64,000 bases of DNA, from positions 149 to 64,148 of the forward strand of contig JAZNPC010000010.1 of assembly GCA_045589455.1 (NCBI GenBank), written 5' to 3'. Positions 6,561 to 62,666 of this stretch are shown here, one piece after another; position 1 is the stretch's first letter; each line of letters opens with the position of its first letter. Source of the stretch: Kiritimatiellia bacterium (GTDB lineage Bacteria > Verrucomicrobiota > Kiritimatiellia > RFP12 > UBA3636). The notes beneath the pieces were generated by a model. The model made no database searches and was not told where the DNA came from. It saw only the letters and a program-made list of their open reading frames with translations. Position numbers and translations under genes: made by a program.

Positions 6561-7880
6561 TTCCATGGGTGTCGGGTGATTGTCCTTGTGCTAGTGCTTT
6601 GTTGTGATGCGAGACTTTAGACGTTGAACGGACGCGAGACAATCAAACGTTGAAAGCTAATTGTCGTTAGTCGCGTTGCTTGTTGCTTTCGCCTAACACG
6701 GACACACATAGTGTGATTTTTACGGAGGACAAGGGAGCATTGTGCCAACAATCATTCCAGTACCCCAATCACCCCTCCGTGTCTCCGTTCCTCCAGAAAA
6801 CCACACTACGTGTGCTCCGTGTTTCGCCGATGGCTCAAGCGAGAGCGTTTAAATCGTTACACTTGTTGCTTACGCTCAACACGGAGTACGGAGGTAAATG
6901 GAGTACTATACTAACAATCATTATAATAACCCCAGCACCTCTCCGTGTCTCCGTTCTCTTAATCCTCCGCGTTTCGCCGAAGGCCACAGCGGGAGCGTTT
7001 AAATCGTTGCACTCGTTGCTTTCGCCTAACACGGAGACGCGGAGGCGCGGACAAAAGTGCTAGCAATCATTAACAACAACCCCATAACTCCCTCCGTGCC
7101 TCTGAGCCTCTTAATCCTCCGCGTTTCGCCGAAGGCTAGAGCGGGAGCGTTTAAATCGTTTCACTCATTGCTTACGCCTAACACGGAGGCTGGGGAGAAC
7201 GGAGACGCGGAGAGGTTTGGGAAGATATTGGAGAAAGGGGCTACAGCCCTTTGCGTGCTGACAGTATGACAGTTGGAGAGTGAAGATGAGGGTGGCTTGC
7301 CGCCCTAGACCCCCAACTGTCAAACTTTCCAACTCGCCCACTCGCAAACTGTCAAACTTTCCAACACCTAAACAGTTCCATTTTTTTATAGTTTGACAGT
7401 TTGACAGTATGATAGTATGACAGTTAGATAGTTGGAGAGAGAAGATGAAGGTGGCTTTGCCTCCTCTCGCTTTCTCCCCAAACCCCAGCACCTCTCCGTG
7501 TCTCCGTTCCTCCAGAAAACCACACTACGTGTGCTCCGCGTTTCGCCGAAGGCTAGAGCGCCAGCGACAAATCACTCAGCTGCGTACCCATCATCCGTGC
7601 AAATTTGTGCAAATTCGTGTTCGCGCCGCAGGCCTGAGCGTCAGCGTTTAAATCGTTGCACTCGTTGCTTTCGCTCAACACGGAGTACGGAGAAAAGGGC
7701 GCATTGTGCTAATCGTTTCACTCGTTGCTTTCGCTTAACACGGACACACATAGTGTGATTTTTACGGAGGTAAGGAGAATTGTGCTAGCAATCATTCCAA
7801 TACCCCAGAATATTCTCCGTGCCTCTGAGCCTCTTAATCCTCCGCGTTTCGCCGAAGGCTCAAGCGAGAGCGTTTAAATC
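6561..7880. repeat. Mosaic of GC-rich intergenic repeat modules (right composite flanking the adhesin gene)
   Basis: Same module set and order as 1190-2160. Module A copies lie at 6815-6886, 6965-7036 and 7117-7186, with partial or variant copies at 7535-7560, 7617-7690, 7700-7770 and 7841-7880. Module B is at 7189-7257. Module C units run 7258-7480. Confidence 0.85.
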
Positions 7881-8012: not shown

Positions 8013-10397
8013 ATGAAAAAATTTATATTCTTGATTCTACTTGCTGTGGCAACGTGTTCTTTTGGCGCTTGGAGATATGTTGAAGATCCAGGCAAATGGA
8101 ATAATGCTGGCGATAAATCATATACCGGTTATATCACCGACGATACTACTTGGACTATCTACGTTCTTCAGCTATCTGATGGTACATGGCAGCTAGGTGC
8201 AGGTACATTTGGTGTTGACTATGGCTCTGGAGGTGGTTCTTGTAATGCAGGCAGACCAAGTGGTTCTTTAGAATCAAACCAAAAAACAGACACTGGTATA
8301 GGTTCTGGAGTCTTGGACCTTTGTGAGGCTTTTGACGATTTGCCAGATATGCAATTTACAGCAATCGGTCCTAGATGCTTCTATAATCATAAGCAAATTA
8401 CAGGAATTGTTATTCCTGCAGAAATTAAGGTGCTTAAAACCAGCGCATTTCAAGGCAGTTCTTTGACAAGTATAACATTTGAGGCAGGTTCTCAATTAAC
8501 AACTATTCAGGATTCTGTATTTAGAAGCGCACAAAGCATAAAGATACTTAATCTAAAGGACACAAAATTGGAAAGCATTGGATCTGGTTGCTTTGATGCT
8601 GCATTAGGTTTTAGAGAAATCTCTTTACCAAGCACCTTAACAACTCTTTCAAGCAGTGCTTTCTCTTACATTACAGACTCTGATATGGTATATCATTTCG
8701 CTGGTTCTATTCCAACAAGTATTGGCAGCTCTGCATTTCGTCCTAGAAGCTTAAGTGAAAAAATCAAATGGGCTTTTTACGTTGATGTAAATACAAAAGG
8801 AACTTGGCCAATCAGAACTGATGTTGCATTTGCAGATGCAACTCTTCCTATGGTAGATGGCGTTACTTTTGCCGAAGAAGATTATCTTGGTTATTTGTAT
8901 TTGTCAGATTTGCCTGGCAATAATATTAACAGCCCACAAAAGGTTTGGATATTTAAAGAAGGCGTATTAAGTGCTATAGTTCCTCCTTCTATCTCTGCAA
9001 TTACTCAGACAGGAAGAAAAGATGTTTCCATCGATTTGGCATTGGATATGGGAACTGCAGATGTAGCATCAATGGAAGTAACTCTGAATGATACAACAAT
9101 CACAAAAGAAGGAACAGAAGACGGTACTTACGATTTTTATTTTGATGAACTTTCCCTTGAAACAACATATTCATGGGTTGCAATTCTTAAGGATGCAAAT
9201 GGTGATATTGTTCAACAAATTGTTGGTTCAGCAACAACTCTTCCTCCAGATATTTCTCTAGGTAAAACTTCATATACACAGCCAGCTGATGGTCTTTCAG
9301 CAACTGTATATGTTGAGATTGTTGAATTAAAAGGAGAGTCAGCTGAGATTGCTTTTACCTTTGATGGGAATGACGCCGTGACACAAACAGTTACATCGGC
9401 AGGAAAATATGGTTTTGATGTTACCAATTTGACTTTAGGTGAAAAATATAATTATTCATTTGTGGTTACATCTTCTCAAAATTCAGATGTCGCTTCTATT
9501 AATGGTGTGCTTGAAGCAGATTATTATCATTGGGTTTATACTGCTGCACCGGCAGGAAGTATCCGTAATGGTATGCCATATACAGGTGAACTAACTGATA
9601 GAAATTGGCGTTTATATATCTATTGCCCAGACCCAGAGAAGCCAGATGAGTTTTGGCTAGGCTGTGGTGGTGCAGGAACGTCTGCCACAGACGCAAATGG
9701 TAGAGGTGCTCTTGATCTTACTGCTGTCTATGCTGATACGTTAGCAGCGGGCACACCTGTAAAGATTATAGATGTCAATAGCTTTGCATTTGTAAGTAAT
9801 CAAAATCTTGAGAAGCTTGTCTTGCCTCGATTCACTCAGAATATTAGATCATATACTTTTTATGGATGTAGATCGCTAACAAGTGTTGATTTGTCTAAGA
9901 CACAAATTACTAATATTTCTGCTCGTGCTTTCCAAGATAACTATGGCTGTACAGAGTACTACTTGCCTAGAACATTGGTTAGTGTTGGAGCATGTGCATT
10001 TGCATGGGGTCCAGCCAAGCGTGCAATTCATTTCTTGGGAGATGTCCCAACTGTTGAAATTACAACACAGGCTACAGGTACTGGTAATGTAGGTGGCGAT
10101 CAGTCTTTCTATTCTGGTAATAATAATAATCAATGGGCTTATTGTGTTGATGCAAAGACATATCCACGTTGGAAGACAGATGCGTCCACAATTCTTTATA
10201 CTGATGAGAATCCTTTCCCTGCTGCTAGTGAGCAGACATGGATCCCTGAGAGTGTTCAATATGGCAAAGTGGATGGTTATGCAAAGCCATTTGGTAATTC
10301 TACACTTGGGCGTGGTTGGGATTCCTCTGCATTTGGTCGTGCATATTTGATTCAAGAGAATTACTATAATCCAGCAACAGTATTGATGATATTTTAA
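8013..10397 (+). CDS. BspA-type leucine-rich-repeat surface protein (two LRR blocks separated by Ig-like repeats)
   Basis: ORF 7971-10397. I prefer the ATG at 8013 (AAGGAAAG upstream; MKKFIFLILLAVATCSFGAW signal peptide). LRR_5-like segments are present (AFQGSSLTSITFEAGSQLTTIQDSVF; YTFYGCRSLTSVDLSKTQITNISARAF). Confidence 0.7.
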   Translation: MKKFIFLILLAVATCSFGAWRYVEDPGKWNNAGDKSYTGYITDDTTWTIYVLQLSDGTWQLGAGTFGVDYGSGGGSCNAGRPSGSLESNQKTDTGIGSGVLDLCEAFDDLPDMQFTAIGPRCFYNHKQITGIVIPAEIKVLKTSAFQGSSLTSITFEAGSQLTTIQDSVFRSAQSIKILNLKDTKLESIGSGCFDAALGFREISLPSTLTTLSSSAFSYITDSDMVYHFAGSIPTSIGSSAFRPRSLSEKIKWAFYVDVNTKGTWPIRTDVAFADATLPMVDGVTFAEEDYLGYLYLSDLPGNNINSPQKVWIFKEGVLSAIVPPSISAITQTGRKDVSIDLALDMGTADVASMEVTLNDTTITKEGTEDGTYDFYFDELSLETTYSWVAILKDANGDIVQQIVGSATTLPPDISLGKTSYTQPADGLSATVYVEIVELKGESAEIAFTFDGNDAVTQTVTSAGKYGFDVTNLTLGEKYNYSFVVTSSQNSDVASINGVLEADYYHWVYTAAPAGSIRNGMPYTGELTDRNWRLYIYCPDPEKPDEFWLGCGGAGTSATDANGRGALDLTAVYADTLAAGTPVKIIDVNSFAFVSNQNLEKLVLPRFTQNIRSYTFYGCRSLTSVDLSKTQITNISARAFQDNYGCTEYYLPRTLVSVGACAFAWGPAKRAIHFLGDVPTVEITTQATGTGNVGGDQSFYSGNNNNQWAYCVDAKTYPRWKTDASTILYTDENPFPAASEQTWIPESVQYGKVDGYAKPFGNSTLGRGWDSSAFGRAYLIQENYYNPATVLMIF

Positions 10398-48916: not shown

Positions 48917-50239
48917 ATGAAAAAGTTTTTACTCTTTGTTGTTTTATTAGCACTTTCAGTGAATGTATTTGCTGAAAATAAATTTAGTCCTGAAACAGTA
49001 GCCGCGCAAGAGGCTTTTATAAATGATGGTTTTGGTATTTTTATTCATTGGGGTATTTATGCAATTCATGGGAAGGGCGAGTGGTGGCTTAATAAATCAA
49101 AAATGCCTTTAGAGGAATATGAGGCTGTAGCATCTCAATTTAATCCAACAAATTTTGATGCAAATGCTTGGGCTGAAGCTTTTGCTGATGCTGGTGCACG
49201 CTATGTAACAATTACCTCACGCCACCATGATGGCTTTTCTATGTTCGCTACCACAAATACAACCTACGATATTGTGGATGCAACACCATATAAGCGCGAT
49301 CCGATGGCTGAGCTTGCTACAGCATGTAAGAAGCATAACTTGAAGCTAGGCTTCTATTATTCTCTCCTTGATTGGCGCCGAGAGGATTTTCCTCATTATA
49401 AAGGCCGCGGAGATTATGATTCATATTATGCCTTTATGAAGGGGCAGCTGGGAGAGCTCTTAACTAATTATGGACCAATTAATTGCATATGGTTTGATGG
49501 GCAATGGGCGCGCACTGACGCTGGCTTTGATTGGCGCTTGCCTGAGCTATTTGATTATGTTCGCTCAATTCAACCATCCTGCTTAGTTGGTAATAATTCA
49601 CATGTATCACTTCAGCCTGGTGAGGATTTCCAAATTTGGGAAATTAATTATCCAGGAGGTCACACAGGTCACATGAATGATAAGCAAACCATTGCAACAA
49701 ATGTACCTTTGGAATGCTGCTGGTCAATGACCTCTGATGCATGGGGATATCAGCCTAATGATTTGATGGAAAAGAATCCATCAAAGGAGCTCATTCGAAA
49801 GCTAGTGCGCACTCGTTTTCTTGGCGCAAATCTTCTACTAAATGTTGCTCCTGCTCCAGATGGATCCATTCCTGAACCCGCATTAGAGCGTCTCAAGGAT
49901 ATTGGAGAGTGGATGGATAAGTATGGCGATACCATTATAGATGCAAAGCCTGGTCATATTTATTTGGGAGGTCACAAGGAGTTCTCTAATGTAATTTCTA
50001 CTATCTCTGAGGATGGTAAAACAATACATTTGCATATTTTAACAGATGGCAAGAAGGATTTTGGATTATGGATCCCATTCCCAGATACAATTGTAGCAAT
50101 CACCAATCGCATGACAGGTGCTGAGCTACCATTTGTGCAGAAAATGCATCATTCAAAGCGCTACTTATCTCTACACCTAGATTTAGAGGCTGATGTGCCA
50201 GACACAATTCTCGACATCACTATCGACCCTTCAAACTAA
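48917..50239 (+). CDS. Alpha-L-fucosidase (GH29), secreted
   Basis: ORF 48890-50239. I prefer the ATG at 48917 (AGGGGA upstream; MKKFLLFVVLLALSVNVFA signal). GH29-type segments are FGIFIHWG, TSRHHDGFSMF and WFDGQW. Confidence 0.85.
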   Translation: MKKFLLFVVLLALSVNVFAENKFSPETVAAQEAFINDGFGIFIHWGIYAIHGKGEWWLNKSKMPLEEYEAVASQFNPTNFDANAWAEAFADAGARYVTITSRHHDGFSMFATTNTTYDIVDATPYKRDPMAELATACKKHNLKLGFYYSLLDWRREDFPHYKGRGDYDSYYAFMKGQLGELLTNYGPINCIWFDGQWARTDAGFDWRLPELFDYVRSIQPSCLVGNNSHVSLQPGEDFQIWEINYPGGHTGHMNDKQTIATNVPLECCWSMTSDAWGYQPNDLMEKNPSKELIRKLVRTRFLGANLLLNVAPAPDGSIPEPALERLKDIGEWMDKYGDTIIDAKPGHIYLGGHKEFSNVISTISEDGKTIHLHILTDGKKDFGLWIPFPDTIVAITNRMTGAELPFVQKMHHSKRYLSLHLDLEADVPDTILDITIDPSN

Positions 50240-50248
50240 TCTCTAGCA

Positions 50249-50700
50249 GCTAGCGTGATGCACGTGACGCCGAAGGGACGCAGAGACGCAGAGACGCAGA
50301 GCTAGCGTGATGCACGTGACGCCGAAGGGACGCAGAGACGCAGAGGGCGCGGAGGACGCGGGGCTGGTGTGATGGGTGTGGTGTGGGGCGCGAATGCGCA
50401 CATTCCCGCTTGTTGTTGCCTGGGTTTATTGCGAAATCTAACGAAGCAATAAGGCAACTGCCAAGCGCTAATGTGTATGACCCACCAAGGCTTTTGAGGT
50501 TGGGGGCGTGAAAAACAATCAACAATCAACAGTCTACTGCCAACAATGGAGTCTTAACGTCTAATGTCGTTCAATTGTCTATCGTCTAATTGTCACATAG
50601 GAACACCCGTTTGGTGAAGGCAACCCGCCTACTAGCTCAGGAGAAATATAGTCTATCTCCACATCTTCCTTAGGCGTGAGCCATCGCAGACGCCATCTCC
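50249..50700. repeat. GC-rich repeat block: 52-bp tandem duplication, the ~200-bp element, and 'cgtctaa' modules
   Basis: 'gctagcgtgatgcacgtgacgccgaagggacgcagagacgcagag' starts at 50249 and again at 50301. 50301-50497 matches 25025-25222. 50550-50600 ('cgtctaatgtcgttcaattgtctatcgtctaattgtc') resembles 2090-2140. Confidence 0.85.
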
Positions 50701-50810
50701 GCTCGAGATGTAAAATCTATAATTGATAATTCTTGAATTATCATTTTATAAGTGATAATATATCGCTACAAAATGTTAAAAGATTGATTTTATACGCTTA
50801 GCGTAATTCG

Positions 50811-50957
50811 TCTTCGTGAAAATCGCCAAATTTAAACGAGTATGGACGGACAAGCGCGTGCAAGGTGTATTGTACCATTTGCGCGTCTCTATGTTTGCTC
50901 ATACAAGGTGTTTGGCGATACCTCACGGAGGCAAATTTTAGGGACGCGTTTTTTTAT
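50811..50957 (+). other. Inverted-repeat-bounded ~120-nt element ending near a T7 run (candidate structured RNA or recombination-site remnant)
   Basis: 'ttcgtgaaaatcgccaaa' (50813-50830) pairs with 'tttggcgatacctcacggag' (50911-50930). There is an internal hairpin gcaaggt..accatttgc. 'acgcgttttttt' ends at 50957. Confidence 0.3.
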
Positions 50958-51082
50958 TCTCTAAAATAGGCTTCCATGCTAAGAAATAAAAATTATATCT
51001 ATTGGCATAAGTTTTTTATTACTAAATAGGAATAAATATAGAAATCGGTATCTGTTTGTAGAGTTAAACATAGGAGAAAATT

Positions 51083-51504
51083 ATGCGTGACGATATAAAT
51101 TTTGATGAAGAAAAGCTAAAAAAGAGCAGTCCAAGTATGCCCCAAAGGATGAGAATGAGATTAAAGAGAAGGTTTTAAATAAAGAAGAAAAGTTGAATAG
51201 CAAGTTTTCTACAATAGAAAAGTTAAAGCCTTATTGGGACGATTTTAAAACAATTTTCTCTATGATTAAGGATTGCGTTACTGGAAAGTATAAAGAAACA
51301 CCATTTACAACAATTGCTAGCTTAGCTGGTGTATTAATTTATGTTCTTTCTCCAATTGATTTAATGGCTGATTTCATTCCACTTCTAGGATATGTGGATG
51401 ATGCTGCAATCTTGGGTCTTGCCATTAAACTAGCTGCTGCAGATATTGAAAAATATCGTCAGTGGAAAAAGACAATAGATGTAGAAGAAAAGCAGGTCAA
51501 CTAA
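51083..51504 (+). CDS. DUF1232/YkvA-family membrane protein; full-length product requires a -1 frameshift at 51118-51124 (otherwise TTG start at 51193)
   Basis: AGGAG lies 7 nt upstream of ATG 51083, opening a 31-codon ORF. The DUF1232 frame (..YVLSPIDLMADFIPLLGYVDDAAILGLAI..) is open from 51109 and is reached by a -1 slip on A AAA AAG. Confidence 0.55.
51118..51124 (+). other. Candidate -1 ribosomal frameshift heptamer A AAA AAG (or homopolymer indel site)
   Basis: In the ATG-51083 frame the codons read cta-aaa-aag. X XXY YYZ = A AAA AAG, the same heptamer as the E. coli dnaX site. Confidence 0.35.
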
Positions 51505-51517
51505 TTTTCCCCAAAGA

Positions 51518-51551
51518 GCAAATCTAGCCTAGATTTCTTAGCTAGATTTGC
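51518..51551 (+). other. Intergenic stem-loop between the DUF1232 gene and the next ORF
   Basis: Perfect 11-bp inverted repeat gcaaatctagc / gctagatttgc with a 12-nt loop, followed by tttcccc. It starts 14 nt after the stop at 51504. Confidence 0.35.
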
Positions 51552-51584
51552 TTTCCCCATAAATATATTCAAGAAATTGTAATT

Positions 51585-52172
51585 ATGAATAACATAGATA
51601 CTGGCCACGGAGCTGAAATTGCAGTAGGCTTAAGGAGTTGCTCTTCGATTATCCTTGTCCCTATTATTGCAATATGCTCAGGCATTATCATTGGTAAAGA
51701 GTACGGAACAGTTGTTGGTATTCTTGGTGGTATTGTTTGTAGCTCTATCTTTTTTAAGCTTTACCATAGGTTTATCGCTACGCAGATTAAAGGACTTACA
51801 GTACTAGACTGCTTGATTCCGTTTTTAGTTTCACTCGTTTCTGGTGTCATTTTTGCTCCAGTGTCACTTTTTTCAGCTAGTGTCTTTTCAATAGCCACAT
51901 GTATTTACTCTGGAGTACTATTGTCAGCAACACTATTCTTGTATAAGGCACAAAAAGTGTCTGTAGGATACCTTGTATTCCCATTTCTAGTCTTTATGTA
52001 TGAAATATTACCTATAGAGCTACCAACGGATCTAGATAACATATTTGCGCTTTCTGGTAATACAGTTCATCAGTTTATTGCATTAACTGCAGCTAAGATG
52101 AAAAAATCGCTCTCTAATGATTCTCCTACCTCAACAGATGACGAGACCATTATTGATGTCGACCCAGAGTAG
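51585..52172 (+). CDS. Polytopic membrane protein of unknown function (about 5 TM, acidic C-terminal tail)
   Basis: 195 aa with successive hydrophobic, G/S-rich segments. The tail is SNDSPTSTDDETIIDVDPE. Confidence 0.55.
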   Translation: MNNIDTGHGAEIAVGLRSCSSIILVPIIAICSGIIIGKEYGTVVGILGGIVCSSIFFKLYHRFIATQIKGLTVLDCLIPFLVSLVSGVIFAPVSLFSASVFSIATCIYSGVLLSATLFLYKAQKVSVGYLVFPFLVFMYEILPIELPTDLDNIFALSGNTVHQFIALTAAKMKKSLSNDSPTSTDDETIIDVDPE

Positions 52173-52248
52173 AAGCATATTTGGTAAATATATTTTATTT
52201 TGCATAGTATCATTTCTATGATGTAATAAAGAAATAAAGAAAGTTTTT

Positions 52249-53868
52249 ATGTGTTTATGGATTGTTGTTGGTTCTATTTTAGCATTTATTATAACAATAT
52301 GTATTATGTATTGGAATGTTGTTAAAATTTTATTAATTATAGTTGCTATAATTTATGTGCTATCTTTATTAGTCAGCTTAATTAAAAAAGTAATTAAAAA
52401 GGTTGAGCATGAAAATGAGTTGAAATTATTTGCTATAAATGAAGAGAATAAAACCGAAGAAAAAAAACAAAACATAAATTTCAAAAAGTTGTCAAATATA
52501 CTTTTTGTATCAACAATAGATTTAAGAGAGCATCCATTAAAAAACGAAAAGTATAAAAAACGTAAACAATATTTTGAAGTATTAATGTTTCTAATTAATA
52601 ATTCAGTGATTTCAGAAAAATTGAAAGATTTTACTGAAGGTCGTTTATCTATGTATTTTGATTGTTTGTTGCCTGAATTGATGTCTGAAAAGAGTGAAAT
52701 ATTAAATCAAAAAATAGAAGAAAAGGTTTTTATAAAAAAATTAATGCCTTTGTTTTATTTTGCTAATGTAAAGTATTCATATATATTTCTGTCAGATTTG
52801 TGTTTGTTTCTTCAAGAAGAATCGCTAATTTCATATGCAATAGTTGTATTAAAACGATATCTACCCAAATTTATGTGGGCAAAAATAGATAAAAAATATT
52901 ATAGAATTAAAAATTTATCAGTAATATCTGAAAAATATAAGCAGATTGCTGTTTTAATAGAGCAATATAAAACCAATATTGAATTTTTTGCTAGAAAGGA
53001 AAAAAGGGTAATTGTTACAGCTCTTGTTAGTGCAGGAAAATCAACACTAATTAATTCTTTAATTGGAGAAAGATTAACTAGAACAAAATCGGAAATTTGT
53101 ACAAGTAATTTGGCATACATATATAATAAAGCCTATAATGATGGGACCCTTCATTTTTATCAAAATGATAATAAAAAATCTTCTATAAACCAATGTGTGT
53201 GCTTTAATGCAAGTGAAGATGACATAAATACTTATGATATAAATGAAAAAATAAATGTTTCTGCATCGTTTTTAGGTGTTTACTCAAATTGGTCTAGAAT
53301 TTGTTTAATAGATACACCAGGGGTTGATGCTGCTATTAATGTGGAACATGGGGAGTGTACAAAAAAAGCTCTTTTAAATGAGTGTTATGATATGATTCTT
53401 TATGTGGTAAGTCCAAATCAAATAAGTACGGATTCACAAAAAGAATATTTAAAATGGATATTAAATAATCTTCCTAAAAAAAAGATAGTTTTCGTTATTA
53501 ATAAATTAGATACATTAAAACCTAAAGAAGATAGTATAGCTGATACAATATTTAATTTTTATAAAGATTTATGTGATATCGGTTTTAAGAATCCTACTAT
53601 TTGTCCAATATCTTCTTATTTTTCTTTCTTATTAAAGCAAAAAATATCAGGAAAAGACTTTTCCGAAGATGAAATTGACGATTTTAGGTTTTATAGTAGT
53701 AGGTTTTCTAAACCATTTTATAATTTATCAGGATATTATAACGAAGAATTAGAAGATATTAATCTTGAAATAAATGATTTATTGCAATTAAGCAAACGTT
53801 GTGGTTTATATGGTATTGAAAAAATAATAAATGAGGAAATAAATGAAAAAAATATTTATAAAATATAA
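52249..53868 (+). CDS. Membrane-anchored dynamin-like GTPase (LeoB/C-like)
   Basis: 539 aa with N-terminal TM helices (aa 1-45). G1 is ALVSAGKST (53020-53046), G3 is DTPG (53311-53322) and G4 is NKLD (53500-53511). Confidence 0.75.
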   Translation: MCLWIVVGSILAFIITICIMYWNVVKILLIIVAIIYVLSLLVSLIKKVIKKVEHENELKLFAINEENKTEEKKQNINFKKLSNILFVSTIDLREHPLKNEKYKKRKQYFEVLMFLINNSVISEKLKDFTEGRLSMYFDCLLPELMSEKSEILNQKIEEKVFIKKLMPLFYFANVKYSYIFLSDLCLFLQEESLISYAIVVLKRYLPKFMWAKIDKKYYRIKNLSVISEKYKQIAVLIEQYKTNIEFFARKEKRVIVTALVSAGKSTLINSLIGERLTRTKSEICTSNLAYIYNKAYNDGTLHFYQNDNKKSSINQCVCFNASEDDINTYDINEKINVSASFLGVYSNWSRICLIDTPGVDAAINVEHGECTKKALLNECYDMILYVVSPNQISTDSQKEYLKWILNNLPKKKIVFVINKLDTLKPKEDSIADTIFNFYKDLCDIGFKNPTICPISSYFSFLLKQKISGKDFSEDEIDDFRFYSSRFSKPFYNLSGYYNEELEDINLEINDLLQLSKRCGLYGIEKIINEEINEKNIYKI

Positions 53869-56134
53869 CCCTTATTATTTGGAAACAAAATTTACTATAG
53901 ATGGTAAATCTCTTCCTACAAATAGTGAAATTAATGCACGTATTAATCAACCTGATGTGCGTCTACAAGAGTGGATAGAAGATTTACCTCAGCTTTTGAT
54001 TGATGAATGTAACGATAAGAAGTTTGACATTCAATTTCATGGTACTATATTAGATTACGAAGATGTTAAAGAGGTGTTTGAATGTGCTTCTAATGAAGAA
54101 AAGTTAGAGGTGAAGCTAGATAGAATACCTGCAAAAGAAACATCTGAAAAGGAATCTTTAATTGAAGATGTATTTAAAGAAATACAAAATGGACCTATTG
54201 ATGAACTACGTGATGAGAAAATAATTAATGCATTTAATAATGCAAAAAATAGTGAGTTTGAAATTTGTGTTGTAGCTACAATGAGTGCAGGTAAGTCTAC
54301 ATTGATAAATTCAATGCTTGGAGACAAAATGATGCCTTCAAGTCAAGAGGCTTGCACGGCCATTATTACTAGAATTAAAGATGTTGATTCAAATGTTAAT
54401 TGGCATGCTAAAGTATTTGGAAAAGATAACGAACTATTAGAATCAGTTGAAAGTCTTACATATGAAGAGATGGATAGATTTAATAGAGATTCTAAAGTAT
54501 CTTTAATACAAGCCGAAGGTAATATTCCTTTTGTAACCTCACAAAAAACTTCACTAGTTTTAATTGATACTCCTGGTCCAAATAATTCTAGAGATAAAGA
54601 ACATGAAAAAGTTCAAAGTAGATTTTTAGGTAAGTCGTCTAAAGCACTTGTCCTTTATATTATGGAAGGGACATATGGAAATAATGACGACAATGAATTG
54701 CTTCGTAAGGTTGCAGAGAGTATGAAGTCAGGCGGAAAGCAATCTAAAGACCGTTTCCTTTTTGTTATAAATAAGGTTGATGATCGTAAGCAAGAAGATA
54801 GTAAAATGGAGGATATGCTTTTAAGAATTAAGGACTATTTACAAATACATGGAGTTAAAAATCCAAATTTATATCCTGCAGCAGCTTTACCCGCACTTAA
54901 CATAAGATTAATGCAATCACATAATGACATTCTTGATGAAGACATTCTTGATGAAACAGAATTTAAAGTTAAAAAGTTAAATAGAAATGTTGATTTGCAT
55001 TTAGAAAAGTATTCTTCATTACCATTAAGCCTTAGAAGAAAAATTGATTCTGATTTAGAAATTGCTAAAAATAATGGAGATGTGTTTACACAGGCCTTAA
55101 TTCATACAGGAATAGTTTCTGTTGAGACGGCGATTCGTCAATATGTTGAAAAATATGCAAAAACAGCGAAAATTAAAAATATTGTAGATACTTTTAAAGG
55201 AAAATTAGAGGCTGTTTCTTATGAACAAGAAATGAAGAAAGAGATTGCTAAAAATGAAGAAGAGTGTGAAAAGATTACTGCACAAATAAGTTCGATAGAG
55301 AGTCAAATTAAAGACGGAAAAAATGCTCAAGTATTTAAAAAAGAAGTTTCAAAAGCATTGAAAAAAGTTAAAAAAGAAATAGAGGAAAAGATTAATCAAA
55401 ATGTAGAAGAGTTTCAAAATGAATTATTGGAAATAATTAACACATATGGGAATGATGATATTCCCGTTGAAAAAATCTCTTCAATTTTGTCTCAGGTAAG
55501 TAAAAAGGTAAAGTCAATCGAAGCAAATTTTCAAGTTGCTTTAGAGGGATCAATCAATACTGGATTAATATCAACAAGTAAATATCTTTTAGAAGAGTAT
55601 AAAACAAAACTATCATCGTTAACAAAAGATATAGATTTGAAAAACCTTTCAGGAGTTTTTATTGACCCATTGAAGTTAATGTCAGGTAGTGTTCCAAGTA
55701 TAGATAGCTTAAATATTGATGTAGAAGAAAAAGAAGAGGTAGTAGGTGAAGAATGGATTGAAAATACAAACAAAAAATGGTGGAAGTTTTGGACTTGGTT
55801 TGATGATCCTGGTCATTATATAACAAAGTATAAAACTGTAAAATATGTTTTAGGTAGCGAATTAGCTCAAGAAATGCTCGCACCTATAGAGGATACATTA
55901 ATTCAAAACGGAGAATCTGCATTAAAACAAGCGTTATATCAATCTCAAAGAATAGCGGAAAAATATGAGAAAGAGTTTGTTCGTTTAGATGATGTATTGA
56001 CAAAAAAATTGCGTGAGTTAAAACAAATTACTTCTGATAAAACAAACAAAGAGAAGTTGATTAACGATGCACAAGGAAAATTAAATTGGTTAGATAATAT
56101 TAAGAAAAGAGTTGATTCGATTCTTGAAATATAA
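53843..56134 (+). CDS. Large dynamin-like GTPase with helical stalk (LeoA/DynA-like)
   Basis: 763 aa. G1 is ATMSAGKST (54275-54301), G3 is DTPG (54566-54577) and G4 is NKVD (54770-54781). The C-terminal ~360 aa are K/E-rich and helical, with a Trp-rich patch WIENTNKKWWKFWTWF (55754-55801). The start overlaps the previous ORF by 26 nt; GAGGA Shine-Dalgarno upstream. Confidence 0.8.
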   Translation: MKKIFIKYNPYYLETKFTIDGKSLPTNSEINARINQPDVRLQEWIEDLPQLLIDECNDKKFDIQFHGTILDYEDVKEVFECASNEEKLEVKLDRIPAKETSEKESLIEDVFKEIQNGPIDELRDEKIINAFNNAKNSEFEICVVATMSAGKSTLINSMLGDKMMPSSQEACTAIITRIKDVDSNVNWHAKVFGKDNELLESVESLTYEEMDRFNRDSKVSLIQAEGNIPFVTSQKTSLVLIDTPGPNNSRDKEHEKVQSRFLGKSSKALVLYIMEGTYGNNDDNELLRKVAESMKSGGKQSKDRFLFVINKVDDRKQEDSKMEDMLLRIKDYLQIHGVKNPNLYPAAALPALNIRLMQSHNDILDEDILDETEFKVKKLNRNVDLHLEKYSSLPLSLRRKIDSDLEIAKNNGDVFTQALIHTGIVSVETAIRQYVEKYAKTAKIKNIVDTFKGKLEAVSYEQEMKKEIAKNEEECEKITAQISSIESQIKDGKNAQVFKKEVSKALKKVKKEIEEKINQNVEEFQNELLEIINTYGNDDIPVEKISSILSQVSKKVKSIEANFQVALEGSINTGLISTSKYLLEEYKTKLSSLTKDIDLKNLSGVFIDPLKLMSGSVPSIDSLNIDVEEKEEVVGEEWIENTNKKWWKFWTWFDDPGHYITKYKTVKYVLGSELAQEMLAPIEDTLIQNGESALKQALYQSQRIAEKYEKEFVRLDDVLTKKLRELKQITSDKTNKEKLINDAQGKLNWLDNIKKRVDSILEI

Positions 56135-56145
56135 AGGAGTATATT

Positions 56146-56664
56146 ATGCCTTTAACTAAAGCATTTTATGAAGCAATAAGAACAAAAAATGTTCGTCGAG
56201 TTAGAATAATGTTAAAAAATAGCCTTGTTGTTGATCCATCCTTTTCTGAATATAAATCAATGATTGATATTGCATCTAATTTAGAAGGATTGTTTGATGA
56301 GCATGATGGAAAGATTTTTAATAATGAAAAAAGTTTTTGGAACGATGAATATGTAAGTAAAGAAATGGCAAGACTTATTTCTAATTTTTCTAAGGAAAGA
56401 ATTGATCATTTAAAGGATGTTATTCGTTTCTTGAATCCGATGAATACTAATCAACAAAAGCATTATGGTAAATCCAAAAGGTTTTCACATCAAAAGAGAA
56501 AAATAATTACAGGAGCAGTTGTTGGTGCTACAATTGGTGCATTGTTAGGTAATGTAATAAATGACGAGAATGGAATTGTGTCAGTATTATTCGGAGTTGC
56601 AGGAGCTATAGCTGGTAGTGTTGTTGTGAATTGTATCTCTAATGAGGATAAAGGAAATGAGTGA
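56146..56664 (+). CDS. Glycine-zipper two-TM membrane protein of unknown function
   Basis: 172 aa with AAGGAG Shine-Dalgarno upstream. The C-terminus is ITGAVVGATIGALLGNVI...VSVLFGVAGAIAGSVVVNCI (nt 56503-56637). Confidence 0.6.
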   Translation: MPLTKAFYEAIRTKNVRRVRIMLKNSLVVDPSFSEYKSMIDIASNLEGLFDEHDGKIFNNEKSFWNDEYVSKEMARLISNFSKERIDHLKDVIRFLNPMNTNQQKHYGKSKRFSHQKRKIITGAVVGATIGALLGNVINDENGIVSVLFGVAGAIAGSVVVNCISNEDKGNE

Positions 56665-59600
56665 TAGAGTTGTTTTGGTCAAAGACCATAATTTGAACAA
56701 TTCAATTTTGACGGATGATAATCTTATTGGACAAGGAGAGGGTAAATTTCCTTCGATAACTAAATTGGAGTCAAATTTAAAAGAATCAAGTAAGCTTGTA
56801 CAAGATATTGTTTTGAAAAATTATTTACACAAGTTAAAAGATTTAGAAGTTGTTCCTTTGCCCAATGAATTCAAAGATATAAATAAGCTTCGAATTTTTG
56901 AAATAAACGAAATGGTTTATCAAAAGGATGAATATTCAACCTATAAATTTGCTTCTGTTTTTAGCTCTTTACAAAGCTTAGATTGTGGAGTGTTTATTAT
57001 TGTCAATAGCAATGGAGAAAAAACAGATTTTTATATGGGAGTTCGTTCTAAAGATAATAATCGTACTACTAAATCTTTAAAAGATACTTTGAAAAATGCT
57101 TTGATTGGGCATTTCCCTGGTGTTAAAGTGAAAGATATGTTAGACCCAGAAGTAGAGGATTTTTTATCTGAAATTTCAAAAAATAATGTATCTTCAGTAT
57201 CATGTATTGCTAATAATAAAGATGAAGATTTTAAGAATAATGATAATTTTATCCAAGGTCTTGAAAAATTGGCTTTAGCAATGCAAGGGAAAAAATATAC
57301 TGCTATAGTGCTAGCAAACTCTATTAATAATAGTCAAATTTCGGATGTTCGGAGTGCTTATGAAACCATTTACACTCAGATATCTCCTTTTGCTAATATG
57401 CAACTTTCATATGGGACGAATACTGCTTTAAGTATTTCTGATGCTTTGTCTAAAGGAGCTACAACAGGAAGTTCTTATTCTAAAAATATAGGTACTTCTA
57501 GAGGAACTTCAACATCAAGTGGGGATACATATTCCGAATCAGCTTCAAAGCCTGACATTTTATCTTCTGGATTAAAGATTGCGGGGGCTGCTATTTTAGG
57601 AGCCGCTGCTATAGCTACTGCTATTCCTACAGGAGGGGTTAGTTTAGCAGTAGCTGGAGCAGCTATAGTGAATTCAATTCCAATGGTAACCAAAACCAAA
57701 GGTCGTTCTCACTCAAAAAACAAATCTCAAAGTGTAACATCTAACGAAGGTGAAACATTTGGAGAAAATTCTAGTACTTCTGAAAATGCTACCCATACTA
57801 TAGGAGAAACCATTGGAAAAACAGAAAATATGCAGTTAACAATGCAAAATAAAACATTGTTAAATACATTGGAGAAAATAGATTGTCAGTTACAACGTCT
57901 TAATGAGTGTGAAAGTTTAGGGATGTGGGAATGTGCTGCGTATTTTATGTCAGATAGTTTAGAAACTGTTGAGATGGCCGCAGGAACATATAAGGCTTTA
58001 ATGAAAGGCTCTAAATCAGGTGTTGAAACATCCGCAATTAATACTTGGGGATGGTATGAAAAAAATAAAATTCCAATATTATGTGAATATATTACAAATT
58101 TTATACACCCAATATTTGCCTACCCTACAGATGGAGAATTTATCCCAGTGACTCCAGCATCAATGGTAAGTAGTAATGAGCTTGCAATTCAAATGGGGTT
58201 GCCTAGGAAATCTGTATGTGGTTTTCCTGTTGTTGAACATGCTGAATTTGGAAAAGAGGTTGTTTCTAACTTAGACATTAAATCCTCAAGAACTATTCCT
58301 ATTGGGAATATTTTTTCTATGGGTTCAGAAACAAAAACACCAGTTAAATTAAGTATAGATTCATTGACAATGCATACATTTGTGACTGGTTCAACAGGTT
58401 CAGGTAAGAGTAATACATTATATGAGATTTTGTATCAATTGCATAATTTCAATAATGTCCCTTTTCTAGTAATAGAACCAGCAAAAGGTGAGTATAAAAA
58501 CATTTTTGGAAATTCTCATAATGTGTCAGTATATGGAACGAATGCAAAGAAAACTGAGGTCTTAAAAATAAACCCTTTTAGTTTCCCAGATGATATTCAT
58601 GTATTAGAGCATTTGGATAGACTAGTAGAAATATTTAATGTATGTTGGCCAATGTATGCTGCGATGCCCGCAATTTTGAAGGAAGCAATTGAAAAGGCAT
58701 ATATTTCTGTTGGTTGGGATTTGATTGATTCAATAAATGTCAATGGAAATATATTCCCAAATTTCACTGATGTTTTAGAACAAATTGAGATTGTTATTAA
58801 TGAGTCTCAATATTCAAAAGATTGTAAAGGAGATTATTCTGGTGCTTTAACAACGAGAATTCGCTCTATGACAACAGGTTTAAATCGTCTTATTTTTACA
58901 CAAAATGAAATTTCTAATTCTGATTTATTTGATAAAAGTGTTATTGTTGATTTAAGTAGAGTTGGATCTACAGAAGAGAAAGCTTTAATTATGGGAGTTC
59001 TTGTAATGAAGCTGAATGAATATAGAATGACATCAGGGAAGATAAATAGCTCATTGTCTCACATAACAGTTTTGGAAGAAGCACATAATTTGTTGAAGCG
59101 TACATCAACAGAACAAAGCTCAGAGAGTTCAAACCTTCTTGGTAAATCAGTAGAAATGCTCTCAAATTCTATCGCAGAAATGCGTACATATGGAGAGGGA
59201 TTTATTATTGCTGATCAAGCACCAGGTTTGTTAGACATGTCTGTAATACGAAATACAAATACAAAAATTATACTTCGTTTGCCAGAGAAAAGTGATAGAG
59301 AATTAGTTGGTTATGCTGCTTGTTTAAAGGATAATCAGTTAGATGAAATCTCTAAGCTGCATAGAGGCGTTGCGGTAATATATCAAAATGATTGGATAGA
59401 GCCAGTTCTTGTACAGATTAGAAAATGCAATTTAGAAGAGAATTCTTATTCATACAACCCGCCATCAAAACAAACATCAAAACCGAATGTCTTGAAGCAA
59501 TTGATAAATTTTTTAATATGTAATAATGTTAGGGAAAAATTAGATTTCTCTATTGCAGATATAGAGCAAGGAATAGATTTTTTAGCTTTGTCTTCGTCAA

Positions 59601-59950
59601 ATTTAAATTTTATTAAAAAACTACTTGGAGAATATAAAAAGTTTAATTCATTAGAAATATGGAGTAACCATAAATATAATTCACTTGCTTTAAATATAGT
59701 GAATATTCTTAATCTTAGAAATAAAATTGAGCAATTAGTTTTAAATTCATCTAATAACTCATCGTTAACACATGATTTAAAAGAAATTGTTTTAGATATA
59801 TTCCCAAAATCTTCTGAATCATTTATTATGACTTTAATACATTTGTTTATGAAGGACTTTAGTTTAAGTCGAGAGGAAAATGAACAACGTACTAAAATAT
59901 ATTTAAATTGGTTAAGTTATATTACAAAATATGGAGTAAAAAATGATTAA
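56657..59950 (+). CDS. Membrane-embedded HerA/FtsK-superfamily P-loop ATPase (N-terminal domain, S/T/G-rich segments, 2 TM, DUF87/HerA-like ATPase, C-terminal helical domain)
   Basis: ORF 56642-59950. I prefer the ATG at 56657 (GGATAAAGGAA upstream; ATGAGTGA overlap with the previous stop). Walker A is GSTGSGKS (58388-58411) and Walker B is ITVLEEAH (59063-59086). IIADQAPGLLD...NTNTKIILRL follows. The TM pair LKIAGAAILGAAAIATAIPTGGVSLAVAGAAIVNSIPMV spans nt 57563-57685. Confidence 0.75.
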   Translation: MSDRVVLVKDHNLNNSILTDDNLIGQGEGKFPSITKLESNLKESSKLVQDIVLKNYLHKLKDLEVVPLPNEFKDINKLRIFEINEMVYQKDEYSTYKFASVFSSLQSLDCGVFIIVNSNGEKTDFYMGVRSKDNNRTTKSLKDTLKNALIGHFPGVKVKDMLDPEVEDFLSEISKNNVSSVSCIANNKDEDFKNNDNFIQGLEKLALAMQGKKYTAIVLANSINNSQISDVRSAYETIYTQISPFANMQLSYGTNTALSISDALSKGATTGSSYSKNIGTSRGTSTSSGDTYSESASKPDILSSGLKIAGAAILGAAAIATAIPTGGVSLAVAGAAIVNSIPMVTKTKGRSHSKNKSQSVTSNEGETFGENSSTSENATHTIGETIGKTENMQLTMQNKTLLNTLEKIDCQLQRLNECESLGMWECAAYFMSDSLETVEMAAGTYKALMKGSKSGVETSAINTWGWYEKNKIPILCEYITNFIHPIFAYPTDGEFIPVTPASMVSSNELAIQMGLPRKSVCGFPVVEHAEFGKEVVSNLDIKSSRTIPIGNIFSMGSETKTPVKLSIDSLTMHTFVTGSTGSGKSNTLYEILYQLHNFNNVPFLVIEPAKGEYKNIFGNSHNVSVYGTNAKKTEVLKINPFSFPDDIHVLEHLDRLVEIFNVCWPMYAAMPAILKEAIEKAYISVGWDLIDSINVNGNIFPNFTDVLEQIEIVINESQYSKDCKGDYSGALTTRIRSMTTGLNRLIFTQNEISNSDLFDKSVIVDLSRVGSTEEKALIMGVLVMKLNEYRMTSGKINSSLSHITVLEEAHNLLKRTSTEQSSESSNLLGKSVEMLSNSIAEMRTYGEGFIIADQAPGLLDMSVIRNTNTKIILRLPEKSDRELVGYAACLKDNQLDEISKLHRGVAVIYQNDWIEPVLVQIRKCNLEENSYSYNPPSKQTSKPNVLKQLINFLICNNVREKLDFSIADIEQGIDFLALSSSNLNFIKKLLGEYKKFNSLEIWSNHKYNSLALNIVNILNLRNKIEQLVLNSSNNSSLTHDLKEIVLDIFPKSSESFIMTLIHLFMKDFSLSREENEQRTKIYLNWLSYITKYGVKND

Positions 59951-60896
59951 TAATTTTGACATTAGTAATATCAATAAATTTAACAATGAACTAAAGGATT
60001 GTAATTTATATAAGCAGATTGAAGGAGAAGATAAAAAAAAATCAGGAATAGAAAAATCTCTGGATAATGTTTGTACTCAAGAAACAAATCCAAGTGTTGA
60101 TGAACAAGGACATGTATATAGAAAAGAGAATGGAGATTTGCTCCCTAATAATAATTTCGTGATGGGTGAAAATACATTTAAAACAGATGATAATGGCAAA
60201 ATCTACGCTATAGATGGAAAACTTGTTCCAGAAAATAAGTATGAATTAAATTGTGCTTCGTATGAAACAGACGAATTGGGACGTATTAGAAAAGTAGTTG
60301 CTCAAGACTTAAAGATAACACCAGAAAACTTAAGAGATTCCACAGCACAAACTTTAGTTGGCGGCAAAGATAGATTGCTAGGAGATAATGGCGGTCATTT
60401 GGTTGCTCGTATACATGGGGGCGATGCTGGTATTGGAAATCAAGTAGCTGTTCGCGACGTAATTAATAAAGGTGATTGGAAGATTGATGAGAATACAATA
60501 AGTGATTTAATAAAAAAAGGTAAAAATGTCAGGACGGAAGCGGAAATTTTTTATGATGGTAATTCTGAGCGACCATCTAAAATAGAGATTTCAATCTATT
60601 CTAATGGAGAAAAAATAAGCGAAGCTGTTTATGATAACAATATTGGATCGAAGGATTTATTAGGATTGGAAAAACTTAAAGATATATTAAGCCCTAGTGA
60701 TTATCAAAACCTTTGCGATGAAATTTCTCAATTAGAAAAAAATGGAGATAAGGTTAGTATTACTTCTGTAACATTTAAGTCAGGAGAAGATCCTTCAATA
60801 GCAGTGAGAAATGAAACAACGGAAAAAACTTGTTATTGGCCATGGAATACACGCAATGAAGGAAAAACATTGAGTGATGTATTTCACAATTCATAA
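59943..60896 (+). CDS. His-Me finger nuclease, Endonuclease_NS_2-like (EsaD/YeeF-type toxin domain)
   Basis: 317 aa. The start overlaps the ATPase stop (ATGATTAA). The pre-toxin pattern YETDELGRIRKV is present. Catalytic pattern: GDNGGHLVARIHGG (60381-60407) ..GNQVAV..INKGDWKIDEN..NVRTEAEIFYDGNSERPSKIEISIY. There is no signal peptide or TM. Confidence 0.7.
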   Translation: MINNFDISNINKFNNELKDCNLYKQIEGEDKKKSGIEKSLDNVCTQETNPSVDEQGHVYRKENGDLLPNNNFVMGENTFKTDDNGKIYAIDGKLVPENKYELNCASYETDELGRIRKVVAQDLKITPENLRDSTAQTLVGGKDRLLGDNGGHLVARIHGGDAGIGNQVAVRDVINKGDWKIDENTISDLIKKGKNVRTEAEIFYDGNSERPSKIEISIYSNGEKISEAVYDNNIGSKDLLGLEKLKDILSPSDYQNLCDEISQLEKNGDKVSITSVTFKSGEDPSIAVRNETTEKTCYWPWNTRNEGKTLSDVFHNS

Positions 60897-60916
60897 ACAA
60901 CAGGTAGGTGTAAATA

Positions 60917-61309
60917 ATGGAAATAACTATAACCTATGAAGAGGTTTCTAATATAATAAAAACCAAATCTAATGTAAATGCGACATTTACAATGATTGAC
61001 AGCGAATCAATAAGTGTTAAAGTTAAACCTGGATTGCTTATTCCTGCGGTTAATATAACCTTAAAATTAGAAAAAGATGCTAAAGAGTATAAAATTCGTT
61101 ATGGCTCTGGTGTTGTGTCTCTTCTAGTAACAAAAATAGTAAATTTGTTCGTAAATGATAAACTACCTGAATTTGTCAGATTAGATACATCGAATAATAC
61201 TTTATCTTTTGATTCTACAATTAAGCATAATGGGATTGTTGTAGATATTAAGGATATTACATTTTTAGAAGAAAAAATTTCAATATCTTTATTTTTAAAA
61301 GATTTGTAA
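60917..61309 (+). CDS. Small beta-rich protein, candidate cognate immunity/inhibitor of the upstream nuclease
   Basis: 130 aa, 20 nt after the nuclease stop, with AGGTAGGTG Shine-Dalgarno upstream. The role is inferred from position only; I recognise no motif. Confidence 0.4.
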   Translation: MEITITYEEVSNIIKTKSNVNATFTMIDSESISVKVKPGLLIPAVNITLKLEKDAKEYKIRYGSGVVSLLVTKIVNLFVNDKLPEFVRLDTSNNTLSFDSTIKHNGIVVDIKDITFLEEKISISLFLKDL

Positions 61310-61734
61310 AATTATCAGTCATCTCATATTGCTCAACCTAAATTCGGTGTTGCGCATCTGAGTTATTCACCAGATTATTCTAATGTCAAAATCATCACTT
61401 AACAAAATCAATGACCGGCTTTAATTATGCTACAATGAAGGGTTAAAAAAAGCAACAATCAAAGCATTGTCTCCTAAGTATTATGTATTTGTAGAAGTTT
61501 GATAGGTTTTTGGAATAAAAATCATTGTCTATTTTATTAGAGTTAGTATTGTGATTTGTAAGCATTTGTAGTTGTATTTTTGTTCCACCTTCCATAAGAT
61601 TTATTCGTCAAATGAGGAATAAACAAATGTAGGCGGGATGTGCTGCTAGGGTTCCGTGAAATCGCCAAGGCCGTATTTCGGCAATATGATGAATGACCTA
61701 ACACCATTCCGCTTACTTCTTTTAAGGAGATTAT

Positions 61735-62451
61735 ATGAACGAAAACATTTTGCAAGCAAAACTAGATAAATTGTTTGATAATTGGAAGGCAGCAATAGAT
61801 GCTTGTCCAGAAATTCCTGCAGAAATTAAGGAATGCTTCGTGCGCGATGGCTTCTATCCAGGCTACCTAAACCAAAAGTGTAAGGTGCTGTTTGTGGCTC
61901 GCGAATCACTTAGTGTTGAAGGAGATTATATAAAAGAGGTTTTTGATGCATATAAAAGTAAACGTGTTGGTGGCAAAAATATCAATCAGTATCAATTCCA
62001 TGCGTTAATGATGTATATAGCATATGCTCTAAATAATAATTGCTTTGATTGGAATAGCATTCCTTGGGCAGAAAAGCTCTGCGAGACATTTGGTACGCCT
62101 GGCGGACTTAGCTTCGCTTTTATGAATTTGTCTAAATTCAGTAATTGGTCGAAATCTAGTTGGCAAAGTAATTGGAATTTGATAAATTCTTCTCTAAATG
62201 TTAGTGGCAACGATTCTTTCATCAAACAGGAAATTGAATTGCTAGACCCAGATGTAATTATTACTATGAATTTAGATGGTAATTTAAGTTACTTGGGTGA
62301 AATGCGCAAGATTGTTAATACCACCGATATCAATAAATATGCTTACAAGATCAATGGTAAGGAAATACCTCTCTACGATATGTGGCATTTTTCTGCCCCA
62401 AGTAAGTCGCCAAGAGGAAATTATTTGGAGCCACTTAGTAAATTAGTTTAA
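61735..62451 (+). CDS. Hypothetical protein, possibly uracil-DNA-glycosylase-fold
   Basis: 238 aa with AAGGAG Shine-Dalgarno upstream. It loosely resembles UDG-superfamily motif positions (KVLFVARES ... LDPDVIITMN ... WHFSAPS). Composition is closer to the core genome. Confidence 0.3.
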   Translation: MNENILQAKLDKLFDNWKAAIDACPEIPAEIKECFVRDGFYPGYLNQKCKVLFVARESLSVEGDYIKEVFDAYKSKRVGGKNINQYQFHALMMYIAYALNNNCFDWNSIPWAEKLCETFGTPGGLSFAFMNLSKFSNWSKSSWQSNWNLINSSLNVSGNDSFIKQEIELLDPDVIITMNLDGNLSYLGEMRKIVNTTDINKYAYKINGKEIPLYDMWHFSAPSKSPRGNYLEPLSKLV

Positions 62452-62465
62452 AAGGGAGAAAAAAC

Positions 62466-62666
62466 ATGGCAAAGCAACGTGTTGATTTGACAGATAAGAA
62501 GTGTGCTACCTGTCGTTGGTGGCAAGGTGATCGTGAGGTGATATTTTGGTCTCGTAAGCCATTTAAAGTCGAGTGCGATGCACAAGGTATGTGTCCATCC
62601 TGCAAGCAAAATAAGACCTATAGCTTTAGCTGCAGAAATTGGGTTCCATGGGAAAAGCTTCCATAA
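62466..62666 (+). CDS. Small Cys-rich protein (CxxC ... C ... CxxC ... C)
   Basis: 66 aa with GGGAGAAAAAAC upstream. Cysteines occur in CATCRWW, ECDAQGMCPSC and FSC. Confidence 0.4.
   Translation: MAKQRVDLTDKKCATCRWWQGDREVIFWSRKPFKVECDAQGMCPSCKQNKTYSFSCRNWVPWEKLP

Follow-up and report, generated by a model that had tools for sequence, protein, structure and literature searches.

Does an A-AAA-AAG heptamer that joins two reading frames at the start of a small bacterial gene mark a site of programmed frameshifting of the kind known from dnaX, or is it the trace of a simple mutation? The question is raised by a locus in the window – the whole 64,000-nucleotide stretch of Kiritimatiellia DNA analysed here – in which a short, well-initiated frame runs into a second frame encoding a DUF1232 domain. 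The features on which the argument turns are these:

51052-51086, plus strand: cluster of seven changes private to the window (codon 2 changed from AGT to CGT and, immediately before the Shine-Dalgarno sequence, five substitutions with a 1-nt insertion)
51072-51076, plus strand: Shine-Dalgarno sequence AGGAG, read directly from the DNA; originally the ribosome-binding site for the entire DUF1232 gene
51083-51178, plus strand: 31-codon open reading frame (ORF); codons 1-14 are the true DUF1232 N-terminus and codons 15-31 are out of frame
51118-51123, plus strand: A6 tract, the lesion site; A7 in relatives (DNA alignments and tally)
51124-51504, plus strand: codons 15-140 of the ancestral DUF1232 gene, shifted to the -1 frame relative to the ATG
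51193-51195, plus strand: TTG, first start-like codon of the downstream frame; Leu38 in intact orthologues
51585-52172, plus strand: intact partner gene (195 aa), which accompanies the DUF1232 gene in a conserved block (50708-52174)

As the preliminary description of this locus had proposed, a good Shine-Dalgarno sequence serves the ATG at 51083 – although across a spacer of 6 nt (AAAATT) and not of 7 – and no Shine-Dalgarno-like sequence is found within 20 nt upstream of either the TTG at 51193 or the ATG at 51262, the latter being the first ATG of the downstream frame and residue 24 of the TTG-initiated ORF. AGGAG is identical in 17 of 19 tallied sequences, including the window and the frameshifted loci L009 and L010, with AGGAA in L013 and L014. 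The frame that begins at 51083 runs for 31 codons (MRDDINFDEEKLKKSSPSMPQRMRMRLKRRF) to a TAA at 51176-51178, and the TTG sits 15 nt beyond this stop; the DUF1232 frame is open from 51109, after a TGA at 51106-51108, and has the TTG as its first start-like codon, all of which confirms the layout originally described. Together with the next G, the A6 tract forms A-AAA-AAG (51118-51124), which, read as CTA AAA AAG, stands in the X-XXY-YYZ phase of the ATG frame. Recomputing the frames gives a -1 slip product of 140 aa, in keeping with the approximate length first reported.

This fused product carries the domain expected of it, matching Pfam DUF1232 (PF06803) with 46.4 bits (E 3.2e-12; the gathering score of the family is 23 bits) over residues 77-112, which align to positions 1-36 of the 37-position profile. 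Used as a query against protein collections, it retrieved single-frame matches 138-146 aa long, which align with 91-100% of the query at 73-98% identity, together with a more distant group at 58-64% identity; one relative, P0004 (177 aa, 79% identity), begins further upstream than the others, and another is labelled in its source as ‘uncharacterized membrane protein YkvA (DUF1232 family)’. Clustering at 90% puts 26 proteins of 138-162 aa into the cluster of the best match; the ones for which contig counts are listed represent ~80 contigs, and one is named as the Kiritimatiellae MAG protein MBQ8569937.1. Seventeen distinct single-frame proteins (138-162 aa) match the fused product along its full length (100%) at 88-99% identity, and in their alignment with it residues 3-17 (DDINFDEEKLKKEQS) do not vary; the residues MxDDINFDEEKLKK of the 31-codon ORF likewise match intact orthologues. 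Single-frame proteins thus cover the fused product end to end, and the two ORFs are, as had been suggested, two pieces of one protein. That two frames should join into one conserved protein goes beyond chance; the heptamer itself does not, with AAAAAAG found 34 times in the window and 36.0 +/- 5.4 times expected from shuffles. The 103-aa product of the downstream frame, for its part, was found on a single NCBI contig, which makes the allele of the window a singleton.

The decisive evidence comes from the DNA of related loci. Sixteen of them (L001-L005, L011 and L012-L021; independent assemblies from Logan, ENA and, at NCBI, the Kiritimatiellae MAG JAFUOX010000006) read ...GAAAAGCT-AAAAAAA-GAGCAG, with an ATG, seven A's and one frame, where the window has six; they encode a protein of 138-140 aa from CTA AAA AAA GAG in one frame. 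Among all 19 sequences tallied, ATG and A7 go together in these 16, ATG and A6 in the window, and AAG and A6 in L009 and L010. The loci were fetched mostly through intact proteins, so the tally is biased towards A7, but the direction of the inference is independent of this bias; pattern scans of JGI metagenomes for an A6/A7 census gave no matches. The nearest relatives of the window, L001 and L011, are ~2% diverged from it and both A7 – L011 being a GTDB representative, MAG RGIG4692 from roe deer rectum. Only three substitutions, all in codons 39-134, separate the window from L001, with no further lesion in codons 15-140, and adding one A to the window sequence gives back a 140-aa protein with 98-99% identity to P0001 and P0020.

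Further afield, the tract itself disappears. L006, a distant orthologue, has CTA AAG TCT GAA in a single frame; L023 and P0008-P0011 lack the tract at this point, with their N-terminal extension still in frame, and in orthologues at 58-74% identity the first 40 residues are likewise in frame although no A tract is present. It follows that the N-terminal ~40 codons are genuinely coding, and that the heptamer and the two-frame layout are not conserved in the family. The comparison of orthologues, which the preliminary description had suggested as a check, thus finds close relatives with A7 in a single frame and distant ones in a single frame without the tract. No orthologue was seen to start at the codon equivalent to 51193 with a ribosome-binding site of its own, as had also been considered, the TTG being Leu38 in intact relatives. 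An A7 tract had been thought of as a possible outcome of resequencing, one that would mean a simple error; it was found in the orthologues, in single-frame genes, which bears out that idea in spirit.

We therefore regard the window, with high confidence, as carrying a single-base deletion (A7 to A6), or a base-calling error, in a normally single-frame DUF1232 gene – an answer already contained among the alternatives of a one-nucleotide indel, an error or decay in the preliminary description. The intact gene consists of one uninterrupted frame of 138-140 codons for a small helical DUF1232 (YkvA-like) protein, whose longest homopolymer, in the list of its runs, is the A7 tract. Loss of one A turns CTA AAA AAA GAG (L-K-K-E) into CT-A-AAA-AAG-AG. 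Because this shortening in itself creates the slippery heptamer, the ‘dnaX-type heptamer’ is an automatic by-product and not an evolved recoding signal.

The opposite reading – an evolved dnaX-type programmed -1 frameshift that makes the 140-aa protein alongside a 31-aa peptide at a fixed ratio – was the one put foremost for this locus, and it has some attractions: the heptamer is canonical, lies in the right phase behind a strong initiation site, and gives on a -1 slip a bona fide conserved protein. Yet the comparison tells largely against it, as the two-frame arrangement occurs in no intact relative, the 16 ATG-retaining close relatives being A7 and single-frame, and the deletion itself makes the heptamer. 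Nor were the usual stimulators found. The 76 nt downstream (51125-51200) fold with only -3.1 kcal/mol (z +0.83; 160 of 200 shuffles fold as well), and the 20 nt upstream of the heptamer (AATTTTGATGAAGAAAAGCT) hold no Shine-Dalgarno-like element of the GGAG/AGGA type. The 0-frame tail, SSPSMPQRMRMRLKRRF, is not conserved and has no counterpart in relatives, because they do not translate that frame, and in L009 and L010 the A6 tract coexists with a destroyed start codon. In dnaX of Escherichia coli and in elements of the IS3/IS911 type, the identical A-AAA-AAG in the X-XXY-YYZ phase fuses two frames by a -1 slip, as it could in the window; there, however, the sites are conserved among orthologues and flanked by an upstream Shine-Dalgarno-like element and a downstream hairpin or pseudoknot, and both products are functional, whereas the window has the site only in a deleted allele, without stimulators and with a meaningless 0-frame tail. 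Judged from these sequence comparisons, programmed frameshifting at this locus is not supported, and we consider it highly improbable.

What, then, would the deletion mean for expression? Ribosomes starting at the ATG at 51083 would stop after 31 codons, and no more than traces of full-length protein could be made, through -1 slippage occurring spontaneously at a heptamer without stimulators. Since the slip falls on Lys-Lys, the product of such slippage would be identical to the ancestral protein. Weak re-initiation at the TTG at 51193 might in addition give a 103-aa form without residues 1-37. In E. coli, AAG is highly slippery because a tRNA-Lys(CUU) is lacking, which may not be so in this organism. 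Residual expression from the A6 allele could be higher or lower than in E. coli, and a tRNA scan of the window found no tRNA gene. For comparison, the best V-VVA-AAG heptamers in E. coli frameshift at ~0.3% when no stimulator is present, and the most favourable 3' context raises this to no more than ~3.7% (Sharma et al., PMC4066793).

An AlphaFold2 model built on a 14-sequence alignment (mean pLDDT 74, pTM 0.69) places residues 9-44 in three helices, with ten-residue blocks averaging pLDDT 67-87. As these residues are modelled as helical, the truncation is predicted to remove structured protein; the same residues are conserved in orthologues down to 58% identity. Membership of the DUF1232/YkvA family of small membrane proteins (PF06803) is clear from the domain match, although the clade of the window differs from the rest of the family in having a conserved charged N-terminal extension of ~40 residues. 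A search of the literature on DUF1232/YkvA returned nothing functional. The DUF1232 gene is most likely null or strongly hypomorphic in this genome.

Another parallel is offered by the herpesvirus thymidine kinase alleles with one base gained or lost in a G7 run, which are leaky homopolymer frameshifts with compensatory slippage (Atkins et al., PMC5009743). There, as in the window, an indel of one base in a seven-base run inactivates the gene, while the run permits a low level of wild-type-like protein; in thymidine kinase, however, this product has been demonstrated and is selectively relevant, whereas in the window any rescue would be hypothetical and nothing observed points to a benefit of the indel. 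The A6 allele fits the category of an ‘indel plus low-level compensatory frameshifting’ (PMC5009743), not that of programmed recoding.

Whether the missing base is missing from the organism or only from its assembled sequence is a separate question. A sequencing or assembly artefact, by which one A was dropped from the consensus while the organism has A7 and an intact gene, is less likely than a real deletion, though of substantial probability. A change of one nucleotide in homopolymer length is the classic error type, the allele occurs on one contig only and its nearest relatives are A7, and the rest of the ORF is pristine, with no positive sign of long-term decay. The private cluster at 51052-51086 could also mark a locally poor consensus, for example through strain mixture in a MAG. 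This segment is otherwise nearly invariant across the 16 other aligned loci, and the window has ten private states in 50720-51490 where the other loci have 0-3 each; the 108 ‘private’ positions of L001 at 50720-50830 were set aside as terminal gaps, since L001 has no sequence left of ~50831, and its real private states number two (51412 and 51417). Besides a poor consensus, the cluster could reflect relaxed constraint or a gene-conversion patch, and it also counts in favour of a real mutation.

Against an artefact, the other homopolymer runs of the 64-kb window show no comparable break of an ORF, and ORFs of up to 1365 aa are intact. When a one-base indel was introduced in silico at each of 129 runs (30 of them A/T runs of at least 7) and ORFs rejoined by at least 150 nt were scored, no within-gene rejoining was found in the window, the only matches lying at gene starts or junctions (82, 53846 and 59938); the scan is blind to small gains, so that 51118 itself was not flagged. 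In addition, two other assemblies share the A6 tract, and a third has lost a base from another A run. Over the shared block, L009 and L010, from two sequencing runs (SRR34955601 and SRR34955603), differ from the window by 6-7%. Flanking markers differ as well, since codon 2 is altered only in the window, and codons 5 and 25 only in L009; with the nearest relatives of the window at A7, the A6 events are therefore independent. The L009/L010 copy has furthermore lost its start codon (ATG to AAG, at position ~410), lacks the 195-aa partner gene and has different cargo at the same hotspot, which indicates a decayed copy. The pN/pS ratio of L009 (0.25-0.40, compared with 0.08-0.17 among intact pairs and 0.28 for the very close pair L001-L011) is suggestive, on too few sites to carry weight.

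The third case belongs to a different lineage of the family. L022 (from DRR337763; positions 1758-2230, compared with the intact L023 at 624-1064) is a 74%-identical orthologue in which a 1-nt deletion shortens an A5 run to A4 in codons 22-23 (CCT AAA AAT to CCT-AAAAT). Its layout is that of the window, a 31-aa ORF ending at the same TAA followed by a truncated DUF1232 ORF, and the deletion site is not a slippery heptamer. Independent frameshift alleles elsewhere mean either that such alleles of this gene occur or that three pipelines erred in the same 5' 70 nt. On sequence comparison, deletions in 5' A-runs in three lineages are better explained by real inactivation that recurs at homopolymers than by error. 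Within the deletion explanation we accordingly favour, without great certainty, a real mutation – an early pseudogene or loss-of-function allele – and give a smaller yet substantial share to a base-calling or assembly error.

Another conceivable reading is phase variation. The A7/A6 tract would then be a contingency switch for a DUF1232 gene that heads a variable defence-gene hotspot of gut Kiritimatiellae, either a reversible on/off switch or, with A6 alleles leaking wild-type protein through -1 slippage, a selectable dimmer. The tract does lie in the 5' coding region, and both of its lengths occur among close relatives, where the difference of one base toggles the frame, as at contingency loci with a 5'-proximal mononucleotide tract; A6 has arisen independently at least twice, and behind the block that the gene leads, the cargo varies (in the window it comprises dynamin-like GTPases, a HerA-like ATPase and a nuclease). 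Phase-variable contingency tracts, however, usually have 8-9 or more units, which makes seven A's shorter than is typical. OFF alleles are also rare (3 of the 19 loci, in a sample biased towards A7), and one lineage, L009/L010, combines A6 with loss of the ATG, which speaks of irreversible decay and not of switching. The L022 deletion, in an A5 run, suggests instead a generic mutability of A-runs in a Lys-rich segment. A switch of either kind is thus improbable in our estimate; were it real, the recurrent 5' A-run deletions of the window, L009/L010 and L022 would reflect selection for silencing a costly or toxic membrane protein.

The surroundings of the gene do not alter the verdict on the frameshift, but they are of some interest in their own right. 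The conserved block (50708-52174) consists of a 375-nt leader, the DUF1232 gene and the 195-aa gene, the product of which has no Pfam or PADLOC match; it recurs at 92-98% identity in most related assemblies, in unrelated flanks, while in L011 it is 81% identical overall, with the partner gene ~40% diverged. The edges of homology are sharp, at ~50708 and ~52174 (loci L002, L009 and L011-L021 compared), and a blastn search of phage GenBank entries with the block gave no match. Divergence within it is mosaic: 50708-51200 is near-identical in all loci, 51200-51500 is ~20% diverged in L002 and L004, and L005 is a recombinant; 51500-52150 of the window is identical to L002 but ~40% diverged in L011. 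For this reason the complete lack of synonymous differences in codons 1-38 is no evidence of dual coding, since the near-identity of 50708-51200 across loci extends to the non-coding leader; the codon segment has only five substitutions, and the block is a mosaic of the recombination type.

Behind the block lie 8.7 kb of cargo (52175-60882) of low GC content (26-32%), followed by a second conserved block (60883-62666) that in L017-L021 stands almost directly behind the DUF1232 pair. The cargo – probably a defence island – encodes two dynamin-like GTPases (weak LeoA/LeoBC matches), a 1102-aa HerA-like ATPase, a 172-aa protein with weak glycine-zipper and SLATT matches, and a 317-aa Endonuclea_NS_2 protein (a non-specific endonuclease). 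Related loci carry different cargo at the same place, and the DUF1232 gene thus seems to stand at the head of a variable hotspot of defence genes. A second A7 run (53846-53852) falls where the dynamin-like ORFs 52249-53868 and 53843-56134 overlap by 26 nt. With one A fewer, the two would read as a single protein of 1303 aa; since L012 also has two separate dynamin-like genes, their separation is probably native.

The leader (50708-51082) contains, at 50805-50970 on the plus strand, a hairpin of ~125 nt (50810-50932) and a second stem, with a folding energy of -60.9 kcal/mol compared with -38.2 for shuffles (z -6.1 on the plus strand but only -3.0 on the minus strand); the DUF1232 operon may thus have a structured RNA in its 5' leader. 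L009 and L010 have two differences in the hairpin compared with ~15 in 50970-51066. The few substitutions in the hairpin include none that is compensatory, and hence lend no covariation support; no Rfam family was found on the whole window at the gathering threshold, or on 50200-51250 at E values up to 1. A scan of viral contigs for the hairpin likewise gave no match; other scans of viral contigs gave one, in L024, a chance match in unrelated sequence.

Several repeats lie in and around this region. A perfect 46-nt direct repeat with 52-nt spacing and GACGCAGA-type 8-mers (50248-50345) is found in the GC-rich non-coding stretch between an alpha-L-fucosidase gene and the conserved block. At 50721-50746, at most 15 nt from the left edge of the block, a 12-nt inverted repeat (AATTGATAATTC / GAATTATCATTT, 2-nt spacer) looks like an operator or recombination site. 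A dispersed repeat family has copies at 1286-1448, 1868-2096, 6735-7205 and 7616-7880 of the window and at 9353-9596 and 14127-14519 of L017; in L017-L021 its copies flank a module extending from the DUF1232 gene to a VanY-like gene, in inverted orientation.

The feature is thus an ordinary frameshift allele or a miscall, of an already known kind, and should be annotated as a frameshifted DUF1232 gene (disrupted, or a suspected homopolymer error), neither as a recoding site nor as a 103-aa protein initiated at TTG. The trap that it illustrates is general: one base lost from an A7-G run in the phase NNA AAA AAA G manufactures a textbook A-AAA-AAG. As deletions can create the heptamer in this way, patterns of a heptamer with two frames need comparative support before they are called programmed. 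For the family itself, the recurrence of 5' frameshift alleles in three lineages is a minor curiosity, albeit one that might hint at selection against the gene.
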